From Ignavibacteriota bacterium (GTDB lineage: Bacteria; Bacteroidota; Ignavibacteria; Palsa-1295), in the NCBI GenBank assembly GCA_963787835.1, contig CAWBEI010000003.1:288001-352000 (forward strand): a DNA stretch of 64,000 nucleotides, given 5' to 3'. Of this stretch, positions 17,334 through 63,052 are shown piece by piece (within the stretch, counting starts at the first letter, position 1; each line of letters opens with the position of its first letter). Under the pieces are notes generated by a model. The model made no database searches. It had not been told where the DNA came from and was given only the letters and a program-made list of their open reading frames with translations. The translations under genes and the position numbers were made by a program.

Positions 17334-19613
17334 ATGAGAGCTTTCCTTCAACGCACGCTCTTTGTTCTTCTAACACTGCTCGCGGCGCGAGGGGATGGGT
17401 TGCATGCACAGTGGAAGATCGTAGCGCCGAATGTGGTTGCTCCAAATCCACAGGGAAACCAAGGTTATGGCGCAATGACATTTAAAGATGGAATTTTATG
17501 GGCTGGATTTTATAATCTCGCCTATAGCACTGATACTGGACGAAACTGGACAACTACGAGCTTACGAATTGATCAAATTAACGACATTTCATTCCTAAAT
17601 AGGGACAGTGGAATTATTGCTTCTACCTCTGGAACACTCCAAACTATTGACGGCGGAAATTCTTGGACATCAATTTTGGGACTTGGTTATGGTTTCAGAA
17701 TAATCTATGCCTCATCAACAGTACTATTTCAAAATAATGAAGGGTATGATTTTTATTCATCGCTAGACGGTGGACGAACATGGCGGCGAGCTAATTTAGG
17801 ATTTCCTACAGGAAATTCGTTTGCACTTGGTGCGGACGGAACGATATTATTGCTTGCTGGATCTGTCCCTAATTCCAGTCCTGCATTGAACGATGTCCTT
17901 ATAAGTAAGGATTCTGGAACAATATGGACCCAGGAGCCAGGTTTAGTTCAGTATGACAGCTGGTCAATTGATATGGATTCATGCCAAACGAATCTTTATG
18001 TTGAAAGTGAAGATTATTTTGATCCTGAAAGCCCTGACGACAGCACATCCACTCTATACTCAAGTAGCGATGGGGGAGAAACCTGGATAATAGGATTTGC
18101 ACATCATGTGCCATATTTGACAGGTGCTTTCTCCGAATCTAAGAATGCTCAGTTCGCATTGGCTTTAAACGATGGGGTTCTTCGCTCAACAGATCACGGA
18201 ATGACATGGATTAATATCGGGGGTCCTCCGGGATGTGTCGTAGACAGTCGAACGATTTGCGCTGTTAATGATAATATTCTTTTTGTTTTAGATTCTGCAG
18301 GGAATGTTTGGGGAACGTTCAATAGTGGTGGAGATTCTATTCTTTCTTCAAAACCATTTTTCGCGTCGCCCTACACCTTGTTTCAAATGGATACTGTCCG
18401 TTGCGACAGCATAACACGATCCACTGTTTTTACAAGACTTGGGTGCGATCCTCCTATTGCTATGTCTTCAAAAATAGTTGGACCGGATTCAGCAAGTTTT
18501 ACCGTGAGCAATTTTTCAGATGACTCTATTCAAGTGACCCTACATGGGACGCAGCAAGGCAGTAAACATGCCCTCATGATTCTTTCGATTGATAATGGTT
18601 CAAGCGATACAATTACACTTGCAGGCTTTGTCAATATTCCACCAGATAATTTGACCCTCTCAACAACGGAATTGTTCGGAACCGATTCAATCTCCTGCGA
18701 TACCATTACTCGTTCGCTTATTTATAACAATGGGGGGTGTTCCGCATTGTCTGTAGCGAGCAGTTCAATAATTGGTGCAGATTCGGCAAGTTTTAAAGCC
18801 AACAATCTCTCATCTGATTCAATATCTGTAGCGCTCTATGGCATTAAACAAGGCAATCAACATGCTCTGTTACTCTTAAATCTCAATAATGGCTCAAGCG
18901 ACACAGTCTCTCTTGCTGGCTATGTTAATCTTATTCCTTCTGCAATCACCCTCTCTACCCAAAACGTCCAAACCGATGTCGTTGGCGGGACTGTCTCGGT
19001 TCCCATAACACTCGTCAATTTGGAACGTCCGGAGAATGTCAATCTCATTCTCCATTACGATACCATACTCCAATATCAAGGTTCATTCAATGCGGCGAAT
19101 GTGAAGTTGGATATTCCTAACGAGCAGTGGCCAGGGCACTCGGAGCTAAATATCCCGCAGGCGCAATCGGGTGTGATCGCGGGCTACGCGCGCTTCACCG
19201 TCTTCGCGGATTCGGTTGCAAAACCGCAAGTTACATTCGATTCGCTGGATGTTCTCTCAGCGGTTTCTCCGTGCGAATACACACTGCCTGCACCGGCAAC
19301 GAGCATCATCACTCCGCCATACGGCTGCGGAACGACAATCCTTTCGCAATTTATAGAAGATAGTGATCGGCTAATACTCAGCATTCGCCCAAATCCAACA
19401 ATGGGCGATGTCGAGCTAACCTCCTCGCTCGATCTCGGCAATGCCGAAGTTGAAATTTATGATGTCCTCGGAGTTAAACGCGCAGATCTATGGGTCACCC
19501 TCTCGAAAGACGCACCCGCGCAATTTTCGCTGCCGGATGGCGCGGGTATTTATTATATTCGCATCAATTCCACAGTGGGCGTTCGTAGCATGAGTGGGGT
19601 TGTAGCGAAGTGA
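17334..19613 (+). CDS. T9SS cargo: BNR/Asp-box beta-propeller protein with tandem Ig-like repeats and CTD
   Basis: Multiple SxDxGxxW Asp-boxes, duplicated ~95 aa unit, C-terminal RPNP...IYDVLG...GIYYIRI. Confidence 0.85.
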   Translation: MRAFLQRTLFVLLTLLAARGDGLHAQWKIVAPNVVAPNPQGNQGYGAMTFKDGILWAGFYNLAYSTDTGRNWTTTSLRIDQINDISFLNRDSGIIASTSGTLQTIDGGNSWTSILGLGYGFRIIYASSTVLFQNNEGYDFYSSLDGGRTWRRANLGFPTGNSFALGADGTILLLAGSVPNSSPALNDVLISKDSGTIWTQEPGLVQYDSWSIDMDSCQTNLYVESEDYFDPESPDDSTSTLYSSSDGGETWIIGFAHHVPYLTGAFSESKNAQFALALNDGVLRSTDHGMTWINIGGPPGCVVDSRTICAVNDNILFVLDSAGNVWGTFNSGGDSILSSKPFFASPYTLFQMDTVRCDSITRSTVFTRLGCDPPIAMSSKIVGPDSASFTVSNFSDDSIQVTLHGTQQGSKHALMILSIDNGSSDTITLAGFVNIPPDNLTLSTTELFGTDSISCDTITRSLIYNNGGCSALSVASSSIIGADSASFKANNLSSDSISVALYGIKQGNQHALLLLNLNNGSSDTVSLAGYVNLIPSAITLSTQNVQTDVVGGTVSVPITLVNLERPENVNLILHYDTILQYQGSFNAANVKLDIPNEQWPGHSELNIPQAQSGVIAGYARFTVFADSVAKPQVTFDSLDVLSAVSPCEYTLPAPATSIITPPYGCGTTILSQFIEDSDRLILSIRPNPTMGDVELTSSLDLGNAEVEIYDVLGVKRADLWVTLSKDAPAQFSLPDGAGIYYIRINSTVGVRSMSGVVAK

Positions 19614-19623
19614 TCGAGGGGGT

Positions 19624-19682
19624 GTCGGGCTGGAAGCACCGACCTACGCGAGGGAAAACGGACGTGCGCAGCACGTCCCTAC
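19624..19682 (-). repeat. Two GTAG-type REP-like hairpins
   Basis: Minus strand reads GTAGGGACGTGCTGCGCACGTCC and GTAGGTCGGTGCTTCCAGCCCGAC. Confidence 0.6.
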
Positions 19683-19717: not shown

Positions 19718-19746
19718 CTGACTTCGGCGTTTTAAGTGCGTATATT
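19718..19746 (+). promoter_or_regulatory. Sigma70-type promoter of element copy 1
   Basis: CTGACT-17 nt-TATATT, position-homologous to TTGACA-17-TATATT in copy 2. Confidence 0.6.
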
Positions 19747-19754
19747 AGTATCTA

Positions 19755-19956
19755 CTTTGATAGGCACCTATATCAATTCCCGTTAAGAATTGAGAATTAA
19801 ACGTAGGTGCTACATTTGCTCTTTGAAAACCGTTGACATTAGTGTTCGTTATGAACGAGTTCTCTGTGAAAAGAATTTGTTGCAACAAATGGCGAAAACG
19901 GCTTGGAAATGACAGTTCATCGGGAACTCACAAGAAAGAAAAATGGCACCTATTTC
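19755..19956 (+). ncRNA. Candidate structured ncRNA/leader element, copy 1 (unknown family)
   Basis: Shares 22, 20, 20 and 16 nt identical blocks with the inverted copy at 24419-24640; GCACCTA/TAGGTGC hairpin and GAGTTCTC/GGGAACTC stem. Confidence 0.5.
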
Positions 19957-20027
19957 TGGTTGAAAAACAAAATAAAATTCAGGCGTAATCAAACGAGTAC
20001 ACCATGAATAGGTGTTAGCTGAGTTCT

Positions 20028-21248
20028 ATGGATTCACCAAGTCCCCTTTCCCCACGGATGATCACTCATCCTCTTCGCATCGCTCTTTTTGGCTCTACCG
20101 GCTCGATCGGCGTGAACACGCTGGATGTGGTGCGGCGGAATCCGGATCGGTTTGCGGTCACCGCGCTTGCGGCACACCGAAATATCGATGTACTTGCTGC
20201 GCAGATCGCGGAGTTTCATCCGAAGGCGGTTGCCGTCAGCGATCTTGACGCAGCGAAGGAATTGCGATCAAGGAATCCGGGATGTGAAGTTCTTGCTGGC
20301 CCGGAAGGACTCGTTGAACTTGCGCGGCGCGGCGAGTATGATACATTCGTTGGTGCGCTTGTCGGGTTTGCCGGGCTTGCCCCAACCGTCGAAGCAATTA
20401 AACTCGGCAAACGCATTGCATTGGCAAATAAAGAGACGCTCGTTGTTGCCGGAGAACTTCTTTCGAGCATTGCGGAACGTTCGGGAAGCGAGATCCTTCC
20501 CATCGATTCGGAGCATTCTGCGATTTATCAATGCCTCGTCGGTGAATCTCGCGAGAGTATTCGAAGAATAATCCTCACCGCAAGCGGAGGGCCATTTCGA
20601 ACGCTATCGAAGGAATTATTTCCCAAGATATTGCCGGAAGCAGCGCTTCGGCATCCAAAATGGATCATGGGCAAGAAGATAACTATCGATTCTGCTACGC
20701 TGATGAACAAAGGGCTTGAGATCATCGAAGCAAAGTGGCTATTTGGGGTTCCGCTCTCAAAGATCGACGTGATCGTTCATCCGCAGTCGATCGTCCATTC
20801 CTTTGTGGAATTGGTTGATGGAAGCATAAAAGCACAACTTGCCATGCCAGATATGCGTCAGCCGATCCAGTATGCACTTGCTGCACCCGAGCGATTGAAT
20901 GAATCCTATAGCCTGCTGGATCTTGCTACCAGCGGCCCGCTGGAATTCTTCCCGCCGGAATACGATAAATTCCCTTGCCTGACACTCGCTCGTAAGGCCG
21001 GTGAATGCGGTGGCCTTTCCCCCTGCATTCTGAACGCGGCGAACGAAGTTGCGGTGGAGGCATTCCTCGATCGTCAGATCTCATTTACGCAAATAGCCGA
21101 TCTTATAGAATCCGCAATGGATGCCCCCGAGCTTAATGCTTCAGCGATAGCAACTGAGGAACATGCTGCACTCGCTCAAATCATTTCATGCGATGCGGAG
21201 ACTCGGAAGTGGGCAACGCATCATTTACCATCGGTTTCCAGATCTTAA
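20028..21248 (+). CDS. dxr: 1-deoxy-D-xylulose-5-phosphate reductoisomerase
   Basis: GSTGSIG, LANKETLV, PIDSEHSA, LTASGGPF, ITIDSATLMNKGLE; start may be ATG 20058. Confidence 0.97.
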   Translation: MDSPSPLSPRMITHPLRIALFGSTGSIGVNTLDVVRRNPDRFAVTALAAHRNIDVLAAQIAEFHPKAVAVSDLDAAKELRSRNPGCEVLAGPEGLVELARRGEYDTFVGALVGFAGLAPTVEAIKLGKRIALANKETLVVAGELLSSIAERSGSEILPIDSEHSAIYQCLVGESRESIRRIILTASGGPFRTLSKELFPKILPEAALRHPKWIMGKKITIDSATLMNKGLEIIEAKWLFGVPLSKIDVIVHPQSIVHSFVELVDGSIKAQLAMPDMRQPIQYALAAPERLNESYSLLDLATSGPLEFFPPEYDKFPCLTLARKAGECGGLSPCILNAANEVAVEAFLDRQISFTQIADLIESAMDAPELNASAIATEEHAALAQIISCDAETRKWATHHLPSVSRS

Positions 21249-21900
21249 GCTGTTGATTCAGAAAATATTTCCCATTCCAGCCAGTGTTCAGCCGGACGAG
21301 GTATCCGATCTCAGGTGCATACCAGAAGAGGGTTCCATCCAGCCAATCCGTTCCTTCATATTGGCGAACATCGACGATCTGAAGTTTCGAGCATTGGTAA
21401 CTCTTTTCTCCGACGGAAACGGCATCCGAGCCAATGACCTGTGTCGTGCGCTGGTGCGGCATATTATAATCGCGACCATAAATATTTCCACTATCTGCCG
21501 GGAGTGTATCAACGATGATTTTTCCAACGGCCATCCCAAATGGGAGGCGGTTCCAGATGGTATCTTTACCAAGCACGCGCATAAAGATATCACCATTGGC
21601 GGCGTAAGAGATCAGCGTGGTATCCGGATGCGATTTCGCCACGATCACCACACAATTGGAACGTCTCAGCCATTGAACACCCGACTGGACAACGAAAAGG
21701 GTATCATCGTTCACCTCGGGATCCACGACCGATTTAGGAACGATCGCTCCCGAGGAGTCCGTCACATAATAGGTATTTACGATCATCGTGCCGACCGATG
21801 GCAGCACGATAGTGGTCTTGCTTTTATTATGAGACTTTTGCGCAAGCAAAATTCCCGGAGTGAGTAGCAGAAAAAACAGAACGATATAGCGATGAAACAT
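21181..21900 (-). CDS. Secreted hypothetical protein
   Basis: Signal peptide MFHRYIVLFFLLLTPGILLA; WYAPEIGYLVR beta-rich C-terminus. Confidence 0.75.
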   Translation of the reverse strand: MFHRYIVLFFLLLTPGILLAQKSHNKSKTTIVLPSVGTMIVNTYYVTDSSGAIVPKSVVDPEVNDDTLFVVQSGVQWLRRSNCVVIVAKSHPDTTLISYAANGDIFMRVLGKDTIWNRLPFGMAVGKIIVDTLPADSGNIYGRDYNMPHQRTTQVIGSDAVSVGEKSYQCSKLQIVDVRQYEGTDWLDGTLFWYAPEIGYLVRLNTGWNGKYFLNQQLKIWKPMVNDALPTSESPHRMK

Positions 21901-21939
21901 TTGATTTTACAGGTATAAGAAGAACGTGCAGAATGGACG

Positions 21940-23808
21940 TTAGTTCAGTTCTAAAGTTTCGTCAGGGGCTTTTGGCGAGGTGCTTCTCATCATCCAAACT
22001 TCAGTGGGATATGGGCCATGTGAAAACCGAGCAATCATAGAATCCTGCGCGGATAGAAGCGGGTCGCGACCCGCCGAACCATGAAAACGATCTATGTCTA
22101 ACTTCGACTGAAGCAAAATATACGAATTAGGTTCTCTCCGCATCCCATCCAGAATGCGGGGAAGCATAATGGAATCGGTAAGGTAAGTTCTTGGAAAATC
22201 GCTTCGGCCCAAAACGGCGAGCGCATCGAAGACAAACCCACCGGGAAACGTTGGCTGCTCGGCAAGCTTCGTTTCATCATCTTTCCCAGTGAGCGCTCCA
22301 TGACCGGCTATGCCATAAAGCGTGTAATCCGTGACGGCAAGAACCGAACCCTTCGGCAGATTTAGAGCACTCCATTGAACTGCATCGTTGGCATTTTGGC
22401 GAACATCACGAACTTCACGCAACAGGCGCTCTTCATGGACGATGCGCGGCCAAATTCCCACGAGGAGCATGCCAGCGATCACGATCAATGATAAAGATCC
22501 CATCCAACGAAATGCTTTCTTCATTCTGAATGGAAGGATCGCTTGCTGAATATCCTCCGCCCAAACGCACCATGCCCATGAAGACAAAATGGATGTGAGT
22601 AAAGCCGCTTCAGTAAGCTGAGTCTTTACTAATTGAATTGTGAACAGCAATGCGCCAATCGCAATGACCAGACATGCCGCAAAGGGCAATAATCGTCGAA
22701 CACGCTCCCGCTCCGGACCTGGTAGTGTAGCAAGCGTGACGACAATAAATGCTACAATGGGAACCGATATCAGAATATTTTGAAAAAGAAGTAAGCTGAG
22801 AACGATCGCAAGAATCGAAATCAACGGAACTTGCATTCCTTTCCGCACTTTTATTCGATGAAAAAGCATCGACCGTAAAAACGCATACACCAGTGGCGAA
22901 AAAAGCAGAATGCGAGCCGTAACGGAGAGATAGGTAGCACTGTAATACTCGATACGTTCACGAACAAAATAGCGAAGTTCCGGCGAATGTAATGGGAAAA
23001 ATCGATTGGCTTTTGTAGGCGAAACAAGTGCAACCCACGCAGTGATACCAAGCAAAATCGCATATCCTGCAATGGCAATGTATCTGTTCGATCGAGACGT
23101 TGCATCCCAAGCAACCCTGATATTTCCCAGCTCCAGAAGAAACGACCCGAATAACACCAGATGGACTAAGATAAAGGCTGGTTCTTTCGAAAGCACCGCC
23201 ATCGAACCAAGGCCCATTGCAAGCAACCAAAATCCTAACTTGGCTTCATAAAGACCGCGAAGCCCGAAATACCAGGCTGATGCTGTAAAAGCAATTTCAA
23301 GACCGAACGTTAGGTCGCTATACCAAAAGAAAATATTAAGTATCGGCAAAAAAGTCAGCCAATATAGCGCGATCGAAATTTCAAGTGCATACCATCGCTG
23401 AATGAGATAACGCGCTGTCAGACCCGTAAATGTGATACCAATAAGTAGCGTCAGATCGAGCGTCAGATGCCACCAGAACGGGTGTTCCCATCCCGCAAGA
23501 CGGGTAAGAAGAAACGCCGTAAGCGTAAAGACCGGACGAAAGCTGTTGATCATTTGCCCATTGATAGGATCGAGAATATCATGCGCAGAATGGGTTTTAG
23601 CCCACAGCATCAGCAGGACATCATCGAGGCGGAACGGCATTCGGTAGCGCGTAGTGAACAGCGCAAGAATGCCTACTCCCGCCAAAAGGAAGAATATATC
23701 GAATTTGCGTTTCAGGGGTGTTTTGTTTATGAATGCTTCGTTAGGAACACTGTGGTCGATATTTCGTTTAAGTTTTCTGCAAGTAGTTTGATGGCGCGCG
23801 AATTTCAT
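21940..23808 (-). CDS. Polytopic membrane protein, GT-C glycosyltransferase-like
   Basis: About 12 TM segments, acidic DD pair after TM1 (RLDD), LSKEPA motif; true start probably downstream of 23808. Confidence 0.6.
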   Translation of the reverse strand: MKFARHQTTCRKLKRNIDHSVPNEAFINKTPLKRKFDIFFLLAGVGILALFTTRYRMPFRLDDVLLMLWAKTHSAHDILDPINGQMINSFRPVFTLTAFLLTRLAGWEHPFWWHLTLDLTLLIGITFTGLTARYLIQRWYALEISIALYWLTFLPILNIFFWYSDLTFGLEIAFTASAWYFGLRGLYEAKLGFWLLAMGLGSMAVLSKEPAFILVHLVLFGSFLLELGNIRVAWDATSRSNRYIAIAGYAILLGITAWVALVSPTKANRFFPLHSPELRYFVRERIEYYSATYLSVTARILLFSPLVYAFLRSMLFHRIKVRKGMQVPLISILAIVLSLLLFQNILISVPIVAFIVVTLATLPGPERERVRRLLPFAACLVIAIGALLFTIQLVKTQLTEAALLTSILSSWAWCVWAEDIQQAILPFRMKKAFRWMGSLSLIVIAGMLLVGIWPRIVHEERLLREVRDVRQNANDAVQWSALNLPKGSVLAVTDYTLYGIAGHGALTGKDDETKLAEQPTFPGGFVFDALAVLGRSDFPRTYLTDSIMLPRILDGMRREPNSYILLQSKLDIDRFHGSAGRDPLLSAQDSMIARFSHGPYPTEVWMMRSTSPKAPDETLELN

Positions 23809-23839
23809 AATTCATACTTCATCATTCATACTTGCCCAT

Positions 23840-24338
23840 GGGGATGCATTGGCTTCGACGGGGAATACTCAGTCGATGTAAGCATGAGCGATCATGCTTG
23901 GTGCGCACCGAGTGGGGCCGCGAACGCTCGATCCTTAAAACTCCCTCTCCCTTTGGGAGAGGGTTGGGGTGAGGGGACTCAAACTCGCAGCAAAACATAA
24001 TTGCGAACACTTATAGCTACGCAATGGCTGCCTAAGCTCCTTTAGAGAAATCTGAAGTCGATGCTGCTATCTCGCCTAACAGCGGGAGGGTGCCCATCTC
24101 CGCAGGATCTTAGACCAGACGGTTCTGCAATGGAGGTGTCGCGGATGAGCGATCATCCATGTCAGGTCTCTTTCGGCAAGAACGCTTTTCGCTTGCTGGG
24201 AGTATTCAGGAAGAGCGGTGCTTTGGGATCGGTCGTTTCCTGCTATGGTCCTGGAACACGCTATTTAATCAGGAAACTATGTGCGTAGTGCCCATCGGTG
24301 GTGTTTTTCGGACAGGGGTTCGACTCCCCTCATCTCCA
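23840..24338 (+). ncRNA. ssrA: tmRNA (tag ANTYSYAMAA at 24003-24035)
   Basis: 5' GGGGATG...TTCGAC; 3' T-arm GGGGTTCGACTCCCC and CATCTCCA acceptor; ATAATT-GCG resume context; tag ends AA-stop. Confidence 0.95.
23941..23976. repeat. CCCTCTCCC-type palindromic element inside tmRNA
   Basis: CTCCCTCTCCCTTTGGGAGAGGGTTGGGGTGAGGGG. Confidence 0.75.
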
Positions 24339-24347
24339 CAGCGAATA

Positions 24348-24380
24348 CAGAACAGCCCAATACGGGCTGTTCTGCATTTT
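24348..24380 (+). terminator. Intrinsic terminator of ssrA (possibly bidirectional)
   Basis: CAGAACAGCCC-AATAC-GGGCTGTTCTG followed by CATTTT. Confidence 0.75.
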
Positions 24381-24418
24381 AAAGAAGTAGGTCAGGCCAT
24401 TTCGTCCATTGTCTTATC

Positions 24419-24640
24419 GAAATAGGTGCCATTTCTTTTTCTTGTGAGTTCCCGATGTCCCCTGCTCATCCCTCGTTTCCGAGCCAATTTCGCCATTTGT
24501 TGCAACAGGTATTCATAAAAGTCCCTTCACAGAGAACTCGTTCATAATGAAACCTATCGTTTCCATTTTCAATGAGCCACTGAGCACCTATTCTTAATTC
24601 TCCATTCTGAATTGAAAACTGATATAGGTGCTCATCAAAG
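24419..24640 (-). ncRNA. Candidate structured ncRNA/leader element, copy 2 (unknown family)
   Basis: Reverse-complement homolog of 19755-19956; perfect 11-bp TGAGCACCTAT/ATAGGTGCTCA stem. Confidence 0.5.
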
Positions 24641-24647
24641 CAACAGC

Positions 24648-24676
24648 AATATACGGACTTAATTTGGAGATGTCAA
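24648..24676 (-). promoter_or_regulatory. Sigma70-type promoter of element copy 2
   Basis: TTGACA-17 nt-TATATT on the minus strand. Confidence 0.7.
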
Positions 24677-24714: not shown

Positions 24715-24790
24715 GTGTGTACACCCGGTTTCAACCCGGTGTGTGATTCTAAACGGGCGGAGAGCAACGGGTTAAAACCCGTTGTACACA
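24715..24790. repeat. GTAC-flanked REP-like doublet, copy 2
   Basis: GTGTGTACACCCGGTTTCAACCCGGTG...CAACGGGTTAAAACCCGTTGTACACA. Confidence 0.7.
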
Positions 24791-24896
24791 GGACAGGAGT
24801 CGGAACCACCTTTATCGGAAGAATCTTAGGGAGTAGTGTATTCCTTCATGCTAATCTCGTCTGTGAATTCGAATGGTTTTGAGATACTTGTAACTT

Positions 24897-25859
24897 ATGA
24901 TAAAAACATCGTCGTTCCTGATCGTGTGCGTCCTACTGATTGCTGGCCATCGTGCCAATGGACAGGAATTATTTTTAAAAGGCACTTTGAAAAAAGTAAA
25001 AGGTGAAAAGCCGCTCACAGTCGACAGTTTACCAACAGGTTGTCAGCTTCTCTATAATGAAGCTTTGTCTTACGATAATAATGAAGACTGGCAGATGGCA
25101 TACGACACTGCAAGGAAATTAGTCGAGCAATGTGCAAATACTAATTTCGGCCTCGGTCATGCAGCAGATGGTTTTACAGATATGCAACAGGCTGCTGACG
25201 GCCTTGGAAACTACGGCGCTGTTCGTTCAAATTTCTACGCGTGGTTAAAATCGGTGCTCTATCTAAACACGACAGATCTTGATTATTTCTGCTCTTGCGT
25301 GTACACAATGGCTGGCGAAGTACCGATCCCAAACCATATCTATCCCGATACCGGATACAATTGGAACCTTGCATTGATCAATTGGCTCATTAACAATACG
25401 AACTGCGATTCTGCAGGCCTTAGACAACTCTATAAAGGCTCCCGCACTACTCAATATCAAGACTGGTCAAATGCATCTGGTGAATACGCGCTTGACACTA
25501 TACTACCTCCGCTCGATTCGATTAACCCCGGCCTTAATGCATTGCTAAATAAGCATTTCCTTTATGCGAGTGTGAGTGAATCACAAGGGCCTGGAATTCT
25601 TTCCAATGCCACAGCTAACCCCAACCCTGTAAATGTAGGAACCGTAATTTCATTCGGCATCAGCAAAGAAGCTTATGTAAAGATCGAGCTGTTCGATGTG
25701 CTTGGCAAAGAGGCATCTTCTTATGGAGATGAATGCCTGTTCGAACCGGGAAATAAATCGGTTTCCTTCTCGCTTGCGGGGCTTCCTTCGGGCACATACT
25801 ATGCACGCATCATCACAGCGTATGGGGAAGTGCAAACGGTGAAATTGGTGAAGGAATGA
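24897..25859 (+). CDS. T9SS cargo protein (Cys-containing N-domain plus CTD)
   Basis: Signal peptide; C-terminal NPNP...FDVLGK...LPSGTYYARI...VKLVKE. Confidence 0.85.
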   Translation: MIKTSSFLIVCVLLIAGHRANGQELFLKGTLKKVKGEKPLTVDSLPTGCQLLYNEALSYDNNEDWQMAYDTARKLVEQCANTNFGLGHAADGFTDMQQAADGLGNYGAVRSNFYAWLKSVLYLNTTDLDYFCSCVYTMAGEVPIPNHIYPDTGYNWNLALINWLINNTNCDSAGLRQLYKGSRTTQYQDWSNASGEYALDTILPPLDSINPGLNALLNKHFLYASVSESQGPGILSNATANPNPVNVGTVISFGISKEAYVKIELFDVLGKEASSYGDECLFEPGNKSVSFSLAGLPSGTYYARIITAYGEVQTVKLVKE

Positions 25860-29715: not shown

Positions 29716-30159
29716 AGAGTTTCTGCCATCGGGCAACCGCTTTTGAAAATTTTTTCAGAAGAGGAAAGTCCGAACTCCGCAGGGCAGCGTGCCGGCCGAG
29801 ACCAATGCGCGATCAGCAATGATCGATCATCGACTCAAGTTCGGGGAACAGCCAATAAGGATAACACCGAAAAACTGTTCACAGCGCAGTGTCACAGAAA
29901 ACAAACCGCCTGTCCCTATCAGAAATGATGTGTGCAGGTAAGGGCGAAACGGCGGTGTAAGAGACCACCGCTCGATGAGCAATCATCGGGGTCACGATAA
30001 ACCTCGCGCGGAGCAAGACCATGTATGGAACATCGCCGTGAGCGATCACGACACCTGCTGCCCACAGGAATGGTTCCGGGTAGGTCGCATCAGAGGAATG
30101 GTTGCCTCCTTATCATTTGATAAGAAGACAGAATTCGGCTTATAGATGGCAGAGACTCT
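29716..30159 (+). ncRNA. rnpB: RNase P RNA
   Basis: GAGGAAAGTCC, ACAGAAA, GAGCAAG, ACAGAATTCGGCTTAT; terminal P1 AGAGTTTCTGCCATC/GATGGCAGAGACTCT. Confidence 0.96.
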
Positions 30160-62929: not shown

Positions 62930-62952
62930 GAAAAACTGGGGTAATAAAAAAA

Positions 62953-63052
62953 GGGACCAAGCTGGCCACGTCACCCGCGGACTTCGCTGAGAGCTGCTTC
63001 CTTCCGGACCTGACTCGGTTGGGCGTGTCCGCGCCGCGTGGGACTCGGTCCC
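62953..63052 (-). ncRNA. ffs: SRP RNA (4.5S)
   Basis: Minus strand TCAGGTCCGGAAGGAAGCAGC; GGGACC/GGTCCC terminal stem followed by a T-run. Confidence 0.95.

Follow-up and report, generated by a model that had tools for sequence, protein, structure and literature searches.

Two inverted and diverged copies of a short non-coding repeat face each other across dxr and the transfer-messenger RNA (tmRNA) gene in a 64,000-nt stretch of bacterial DNA (the window; positions 288,001 to 352,000 of contig CAWBEI010000003.1). Both belong to an element family of an uncultured lineage, assigned to Candidatus Kapabacteria by the names of homologs, with about 50 short DNA modules per chromosome, in which a promoter is joined to a predicted LexA (SOS) operator and a conserved core. 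In the explanation that we favor, if tentatively, the element may well be a dispersed DNA module that borders swappable accessory genes at their 3' edge and serves as an SOS-switched recombination platform. The original prediction, made from the letters of the window, had proposed a structured RNA or an RNA-producing mobile element. Its description of the repeat as multi-copy, non-coding, promoter-retaining and similar in behavior to a non-autonomous mobile or recombining element holds; the structured-RNA reading is not supported, and both the LexA operator and the accessory-DNA edge had been missed.

A profile search with the core in the genome of the window (G000; 3.57 Mb, 7 contigs, 98% complete; other G numbers denote relatives and L numbers loci) retrieved 54 copies, 52 of them full (E below 1e-20) and 2 partial, after which scores dropped cleanly to noise. 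Fourteen further promoter-box modules in G000 have other interiors, one of them being the lexA leader, which brings the total to ~66. Since copies, full or partial, are spread over all 7 contigs in both orientations, the arrangement of the pair around dxr and tmRNA, once singled out as special, is meaningless. BLASTN, originally suggested for establishing copy number, confirmed a multi-copy family and matched 12 of 40 relatives, four of them from the same genus and with many copies; counting the 3'-end pattern gave 38 copies in G002 and 28 in G006. A GTDB scan yielded 8 short matches, 2 from this lineage, and a search of viral contigs yielded none, on which ground a phage attachment site was rejected. 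The literature searched, with subscription papers and supplements outside its scope, held no description of this repeat or its motif.

Read 5' to 3', each module comprises an A-tract, a sigma70-type promoter, a first box (R1), a variable leader, which heptamer repeats often occupy, a boxA-like 12-mer, a 122-148-bp core and a second box (R2), after which conservation stops. The −10 element plus box is present in 50/52 copies, a −35 match in 20 and an extended −10 in 24. By a strict count the boxA-like 12-mer occurs in 41/52 copies and is of the same class as a motif 5' of the 16S gene, which we take to be boxA. R2 is homogenized within genomes (ATGGCACC in 47/52 G000 copies, ACGGCACC in 28/39 G002 copies), and the 3' half of the core is purine-rich (71% purine). 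Downstream, 37 of the 54 copies point into the next gene and 17 at its 3' end, as at tmRNA. A replication-strand bias was rejected (30/54 on the presumed leading strand, P = 0.5), and so was a coding role: ATG frames vary from 2 to 165 aa over 51 copies, in line with the earlier remark that the frame shared by the pair is not conserved. At two G002 sites (L192, L206) the junction with another promoter module, one without a box, falls exactly on the 5' edge of the core, and a second-type module lies ~850 bp 5' of the 16S gene (G000 C4:405904-406030 and C4:406882). Neither tRNAs nor 23S follow the G000 16S gene; elsewhere, at C6:65855-66464, tRNA-Ile and tRNA-Ala flank a small gene for a four-helix-bundle-like protein, framed by heptamer repeats.

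The GGCACC motif of the boxes is half of the palindrome GGTGC-N8-GCACC, whose distribution predicts it to be the LexA operator of this lineage. Among 30 lexA and 29 recA loci from within and outside the family, the fixed pattern TGY-N8-GCAC or its reverse occurred 5' of lexA in 21/21 and 5' of recA in 17/17 family genomes, versus 0/9 and 0/12, respectively, outside the family and 0 in the in-gene controls. Comparative footprinting delineated the full palindrome at recA and, at lexA, tandem boxes separated by 16 bp, and the lineage has a canonical LexA with DNA-binding and S24 domains (G000 C6:57595-58272). The promoter-box layout also lies 5' of ssb, dinB, recQ and an alkD-type gene, with more boxes between a second dinB and DUF72; across these SOS genes (ssb, dinB x2, recQ, alkD, DUF72), the right half-site is strong and the left variable. 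Scanning for the −10 plus box detected this layout in 35/35 family genomes (2 to 41 each), against 0-1 in reversed controls. Scored with a matrix derived from lexA and recA loci, nearly all of them belonging to relatives, R1 reached a median of 9.7 bits, and 1.5e-4 of genome positions exceed 8 bits. A similar TGC-N8-GCA core may occur in Fibrobacter. The literature searched contained no Kapabacteria paper with LexA.

The box also appears in settings other than the repeat proper. The lexA leader (L073, G000 C6:58272-58460) is a promoter-box module built of the blocks of the repeat in G000, G002, G005, G009 and G014, and could be either the origin of the family or a colonized site. A separate, expanded group of near-identical promoter-box modules (20 matches) in G045, which represents a different genus of the family, suggests that expansion took place there independently. 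Finally, the same promoter-box occurs on accessory genes, among them two DNA methylases, a Sir2-like gene and unknown open reading frames (ORFs) (G000 C2:461405, C4:132013, C5:198140, C2:1521364, C4:49400, C2:25143), several back-to-back with the element; parts of the cargo may thus be damage-inducible.

The internal geometry of the module points to constraint on DNA. Spacing between the first and third conserved blocks clusters at 71, 81 and 92 bp over 122 copies, in steps of 10-11 bp. Distances between R1 and R2 in 50 G000 copies, which range from 146 to 240 bp and fall into many separate classes, fit best a period of 11.25 bp (R = 0.63), a value reached by 0/2000 random sets. A period near 11 bp is that seen in vivo for protein-mediated loops on supercoiled DNA. 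Insertions and deletions amount to whole helical turns, a signature at the level of DNA, and the phased blocks and boxes, with a core devoid of covariation, point to a putative protein-bound DNA platform.

Tests for a structured RNA did not support one. Neither window copy folds better than shuffled sequences do (z −0.65 and −1.72), the mean z of 30 cores folded singly is −0.8, and default RNAalifold on 81 cores returned no consensus structure. Under permissive settings, an alignment of 123 cores does recover the stem originally proposed between GAGTTCTC and GGGAACTC; the complementarity exists, but substitutions break its pairs without compensation, and a structured functional RNA is not supported. 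Similarly, the GCACCTA...TAGGTGC hairpin is real in this pair, but only 14/50 copies possess the inverted half-site. That the repeat belongs to no Rfam family was borne out, as searches at gathering and E-value thresholds, up to E = 10, found nothing on either copy; Rfam and ARAGORN detected in the window only tmRNA (23840-24341, +), RNase P RNA (29721-30158, +) and signal recognition particle RNA (62952-63050, −). In three metatranscriptome runs 5-7% of the words were present, nearly all of them from tmRNA, and one run (X2) gave two contigs of low depth that cover the core of related copies, which were set aside because contigs show neither strand, ends nor transcription. Guide-RNA systems were also rejected: the 98% complete G000 has 0 matches to TnpB, the partner of IS200/IS605 omega-RNA, and 0 to the reverse transcriptase (RT) of retrons, group II introns and DGRs. 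Cas9 is encoded in cargo of the element, and the repeat of its locus, 47 nt long, is unlike the core by inspection.

The position of the element relative to accessory DNA is strongly polar. When all 38 G002 sites given by the 3'-end pattern and 2 G006 sites were compared with G000, the first upstream ORF lacked a G000 ortholog at 35/40 sites and the first downstream ORF at 6/40, against a background of 317/684 without an ortholog that is itself inflated by spurious ORFs. At the 38 G002 sites, gaps of at least 2 kb occurred at 24/25 element-spanning syntenic junctions versus 19/226 elsewhere, and synteny breaks at 13/25 versus 7/226; another 13/38 sites had no syntenic ortholog on one side and hence no spanning junction. 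Unshared DNA was nearly always on the promoter side, with medians of 4.6 kb upstream and 255 bp downstream over 29 scorable sites, and polarity persisted (35/38 versus 9/38) with 7 unscorable downstream sides counted as positive. The cargo, scanned as 92 ORFs of which about half have no Pfam match, includes secreted proteins of BNR/Vps10 type or tagged for the type IX secretion system (T9SS), restriction-modification enzymes, BrnT, PemK, Fic, RhuM, a Schlafen helicase and an IS1595 transposase. Five loci (L185, L201, L211, L216, L184) are clean insertions of cargo plus element between genes adjacent in G000; these comparisons of diverged species pairs made visible neither a shared left end nor a duplication, and 8 inspected junctions, again between diverged species, displayed no fixed target motif or duplication.

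Comparison of copies further revealed exchange between them. One cas9 cargo stands before the element at three different sites, abutting three different core genes in G000, G002 and G006, and near-identical promoter, R1 and boxA travel with this cargo, and the sequence beyond R2 is that of the respective site. In the 7 pairs with upstream DNA in common, some of them REP-driven, promoter identity was 0.80 versus 0.60 in the background, with the post-R2 sequence at background; in pairs sharing a site (n = 12), the core linker and the post-R2 sequence were linked. Two metagenome loci (L257, L271) have 1,190 bp in common with 1 mismatch, a tract that begins inside paralogous cargo and ends 21 nt past R2, where different genes follow. 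Within G000, at least 200 bp of the 600 bp that precede the promoter are common to both members in 8 pairs, and no pair has such sharing downstream. At L178 both flanks are conserved and the interior between the boxes is replaced. Exchange points among the pairs listed are scattered, lying upstream of the promoter (L179, L187, L191, L202), just after R1, in the 5' block of the core or just past R2; a single crossover point, first suggested by cas9, was dropped after more pairs had been compared. The cas9 cargo itself (G000 C2:1212089-1216400; L230, L231) comes with a 47-nt-repeat array; two ORFs resembling cas1 and cas2 are found in G002 and G006, and only a remnant of the first, before the array, in G000.

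Both window copies lie where they had originally been placed and are collinear homologs whose similarity is far beyond chance (BLASTN E = 1e-36); their promoters with 17-nt spacers, four identical blocks and linker indels were all confirmed. Copy 1 (+) opens with a promoter at 19718-19746 (−35 CTGACT, 19718-19723; −10 TATATT, 19741-19746), followed by R1, a predicted LexA operator with a weak left half, over the predicted transcription start (19751-19768), a variable leader with heptamer repeats and the inverted GGTGC half-site that makes up the hairpin described above (19769-19817), and the boxA-like 12-mer (19818-19829), of the same class as the motif 5' of the 16S gene. Its core, of the 125-bp class (19840-19964), has blocks in helical phase (19849-19870, 19878-19897, 19918-19937, 19941-19956) and inverted arms GAGTTCT and GGGAACTC (19922-19929); R2 closes the element (19941-19966) as a GCACC half-site overlapped by a degenerate second box, CCTAT-N8-GAAA. 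Copy 2 (−) has its promoter at 24648-24676 (−35 TTGACA, 24671-24676; −10 TATATT, 24648-24653), R1 at 24627-24644 (GTTGC-N8-GCACC, 14.4 bits on the lexA/recA-trained matrix), the boxA-like 12-mer at 24566-24577, a core of the 146-bp class, two helical turns longer than that of copy 1, at 24411-24556, and R2, the 3' end of the element, at 24409-24434.

The surroundings of both copies follow the polar layout. On the promoter side of copy 1 lies a cargo gene for a 759-aa Vps10/BNR-type secreted protein (17334-19613, +), homologs of which are cargo at another element site in G002, and on the other side the conserved dxr (20028-21248, +); at the dxr site, G006, G009 and G014 have a promoter-box module of other interior, and G001 and G002 none. 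An accessory gene lies on the promoter side of copy 2 and is transcribed away from it (24897-25859, +; 320 aa, no Pfam match), whereas the conserved neighbor 3' of copy 2 is the convergent tmRNA gene (23840-24341, +; tag ANTYSYAMAA, long insertion near the 5' end). Between copy 2 and the tmRNA 3' end, a hairpin and likely terminator (24347-24375) is kept in G006, which has no element there; the element is absent from the tmRNA site in 5/5 relatives examined and present in metagenome locus L268. Two REP-like palindromes lie just 5' of the copy 1 promoter (19626-19678), and others just 5' of that of copy 2 (24719-24793). Palindromes of this kind coincide exactly with the point of cargo change at several shared sites.

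Searches for an enzyme covered several recombinase and transposase classes. IntI was found in 0/15 genus genomes over the TIGR02249 cut-off, and the IS91 Y2 HUH transposase in none of G000, G002, G006, G009 and G014 and in 1/41 genomes overall, with no control genome matched. G000 does encode 10 Y1 transposase matches, one IS110 and one phage-like integrase. XerC-like, XerD-like and phage-like tyrosine recombinases, a split serine resolvase and the IS110 were set aside, since their genes have neither promoter-box architecture nor an evident link to the element. One gene does have such a link: a 261-aa ORF (G000 C2:1411540-1412325; L039:2541-3326) has two boxes 5' and ends directly in a core, and two paralogs precede other core types. 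Its family, present in 18/41 genomes, all of this bacterial family (1 to 7 matches per genome), counts 131 representatives among 1.84 billion proteins searched and has strong predicted LexA boxes, those of the 261-aa gene reaching 15-17 bits. Pfam matched neither the protein nor 51 homologs tested, and a PDB sequence search matched nothing. The structural model (predicted local distance difference test score 81) matches RecA-type folds, with DnaB, T7 gp4, KaiC, RadA and RAD51 paralogs tied (best Z 13.8, root-mean-square deviation 4.0, 193 aligned), and the family alignment lacks a Walker A motif. In G002 and G006, a CRISPR-Cas9 block stands between the 261-aa gene and the core, and the G002 junction keeps ~18 nt resembling the core start.

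At the loci read, the neighbors of the 261-aa gene are, as far as translations let us name them, rplY, murI, typA, CRISPR-Cas9 and others. Long forms of the family (390-495 aa, with an acidic insertion) also exist, and further members lie at L040:3575-4384 and L041:4752-5522; the typA site holds different RecA/DnaB-fold paralogs in different species. At L041 (G000 C2:1-14000), an inverted duplication of typA and the paralog gene with frameshifted copies near the contig start is possibly an assembly artefact. Inactive RecA-like SOS proteins such as ImuA and SulA, as described in the accessible part of PMC9578287, resemble this protein in having a RecA-like fold, no Walker A motif and an SOS box; unlike ImuA, its gene was not beside imuB/dnaE2 at the loci read.

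We propose the following course of events for the favored SOS-switched platform. LexA dimers at R1 and R2 would hold the promoter shut in a phased loop; upon DNA damage, LexA cleavage would release non-coding transcription through the purine-rich core. The opened core could then engage in RecA-type strand exchange with another copy, on the same chromosome or on incoming DNA, the latter being possible given the presence of ComEC, and this exchange would copy or replace the DNA upstream of the element. The SOS-boxed RecA/DnaB-fold protein lacking Walker A is a candidate helper. A bolder version, namely an integrase-free, SOS-switched gene-capture system acting over dozens of sites with the aid of a dedicated, catalytically dead RecA/DnaB paralog, and so a distributed counterpart of the integron, is conceivable, though we regard it with more doubt. 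Accessory genes (secreted proteins, restriction systems, toxin-antitoxin pairs, CRISPR-Cas9) would in that case be copied between platforms, and the chromosome would be rearranged.

Several observations weigh against these proposals. No dedicated recombinase was found in the searches of G000 and its relatives, and the scattered exchange points fit ordinary homologous recombination among repeats, for which no switch is needed. The polarity comparison used uneven windows (15 kb upstream versus 4 kb downstream), and some of the upstream stretches shared within G000 are REP-like repeats, not cargo. Copies are related to one another, so that the phasing and Fisher P-values are overstated. Many R1 left halves are weak, and on the palindromic matrix R2 is a half-site only, overlapped by a degenerate second box like that of lexA. 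The 261-aa ortholog of G001, G003 and G010 has no type-1 core behind it. Finally, the 37/54 copies that point into the next gene mean that promoter supply could explain part of the pattern.

Two rivals invoke spread of the repeat by other means. A selfish one-ended mobile element, rather unlikely in our estimation, would have the core and R2 as an end recognized in trans by a Y1 HUH/RAYT, IS110 or phage-like integrase, and would carry variable upstream DNA as IS91 does on failed termination, with the LexA boxes tying movement to damage. A single fixed end opposite variable DNA, new sites between genes adjacent in G000 and the 1,190-bp tract ending 21 nt past R2 suit this account, as do the 10 Y1, one IS110 and one phage-like integrase genes of the genome and the occurrence of Y1 genes as cargo. 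It sits poorly with an IS91 transposase absent from G000 and present in 1/41 genomes, with candidate enzyme genes devoid of promoter-box architecture, with the lack of a fixed target motif or duplication at the 8 junctions of diverged species, with the many old sites common to several species and with an ACGG variant that breaks the R2 hairpin. Marginally less likely is a mobile SOS promoter with a passive role: gene conversion would spread a lexA-like promoter and its leader, which would be kept at island borders for transcription and boxA antitermination of the downstream core gene, and recombination would be a by-product. Pointing its way are the copies directed into the next gene (37/54), the downstream genes themselves (dxr and those that we take from translations to be rplO, rpsL, rplJ, rplS and thrS), the boxA-like motif (41/52) and the lexA leader built from the same modules in several species. 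Promoter reuse is, moreover, documented in the accessible part of PMC3575422. Such a promoter leaves the phased 125-147-bp core and R2 unexplained, as well as the 17/54 copies that face the 3' end of the next gene, and LexA repression would suit ribosomal genes poorly.

The remaining rivals assign the repeat a function in trans or in replication. A multi-copy, damage-induced small RNA, acting as decoy, guide or scaffold with the blocks as protein-binding sites on the RNA, is improbable: the conserved promoter and boxA do imply a transcript, and its arms pair under permissive RNAalifold, but the default consensus fold is missing, z is about −0.8, compensatory changes are absent, indels span whole turns, most copies have no terminator after R2 by inspection, and searches found no Rfam match and no TnpB or RT partner. 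Nor would a trans-acting RNA predict polar cargo. Least probable of all, and very much so, is that ~130 extra LexA sites set the SOS threshold by titration or that the cores are damage-inducible origins for replication restart. Two boxes on each of ~66 modules and the DnaB-like fold of the linked protein would fit, as would a 9-mer in 12/52 cores that resembles what we take to be the DnaA-box motif; this 9-mer is missing from 40/52 cores, however, the copies have no strand bias (30/54), and polar cargo is again not predicted.

If true, the SOS-switched platform would tie genome shuffling to DNA damage via a repeated non-coding DNA switch and not a regulated integrase, would bear on the clustering of accessory and defense genes at fixed hotspots, and would link SOS, non-coding transcription and recombination; an integrase-free, distributed gene-capture system, if true, would be categorically new. 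Whatever the mechanism, the analysis provides a predicted LexA motif and regulon for the Kapabacteria family, not found in the literature searched, a case in which most operator copies reside in a repeat family, and an uncharacterized SOS-boxed RecA/DnaB-fold protein family.

Parts of the module recall known systems. Like SOS boxes in general, the predicted operator lies 5' of lexA, recA, ssb, dinB and recQ, with tandem boxes at lexA. As a dyad-spacer palindrome of the same length class (here GGTG-N10-CACC) it resembles those of Geobacter (GGTT-N10-AACC; accessible part of PMC8565304) and E. coli (CTG-N10-CAG type; accessible part of PMC9578287), but the Kapabacteria motif differs from both, and most of its genomic copies are in the repeat and not before repair genes. 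With the rrn leader boxA of antitermination, the module shares the class of 12-mer found 5' of the 16S gene; unlike in that leader, the 12-mer is absent from 11/52 copies, is followed by no long untranslated RNA and makes up 12 of about 250 bp. By the loose definition in the accessible part of PMC3575422, the element is a putative mobile promoter, and like the promoter-bearing repeats Correia, ERIC and REPIN it places highly similar promoter modules before unrelated genes; it differs from them in its same-strand operator boxes at the ends, phased core, polar cargo and predicted SOS control. Terminal inverted repeats, as in miniature inverted-repeat transposable elements or Correia-type repeats, are not present, the ends being same-strand GCACC boxes by inspection.

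Other systems resemble the element as a whole. In pilin variation of Neisseria, as presented in the accessible part of PMC13463697, non-coding transcription from the cis promoter garP at a G-quadruplex (G4) starts Rec-dependent gene conversion, as it might here; that system concerns one locus, a G-quadruplex without LexA control and variation of one gene, versus gene blocks at dozens of sites. IS91/ISCR elements, which transpose in a one-ended, rolling-circle mode (accessible part of PMC13181058), likewise combine a single conserved end with captured DNA that varies opposite it, whereas the present family lacks a Y2 transposase in G000 and its four high-copy relatives and uses sites that are often old and re-used. 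No fixed target tetranucleotide was visible at its junctions, which species divergence blurs. The integron, outlined in the accessible part of PMC8876359 as IntI, attI, attC and Pc with a LexA box at PintI, also ties SOS to a site where accessory genes are accumulated and exchanged on one flank of a fixed platform, including cargo of the same kinds (toxin-antitoxin, restriction-modification and secreted proteins). Here, in contrast, IntI is absent from the 15 genus genomes, ~66 dispersed platforms replace one array, exchange points are scattered, the promoter of the element faces away from the cargo, and the LexA box belongs to the non-coding promoter of the platform itself. The element thus works like a distributed integron, yet it is not an integron.

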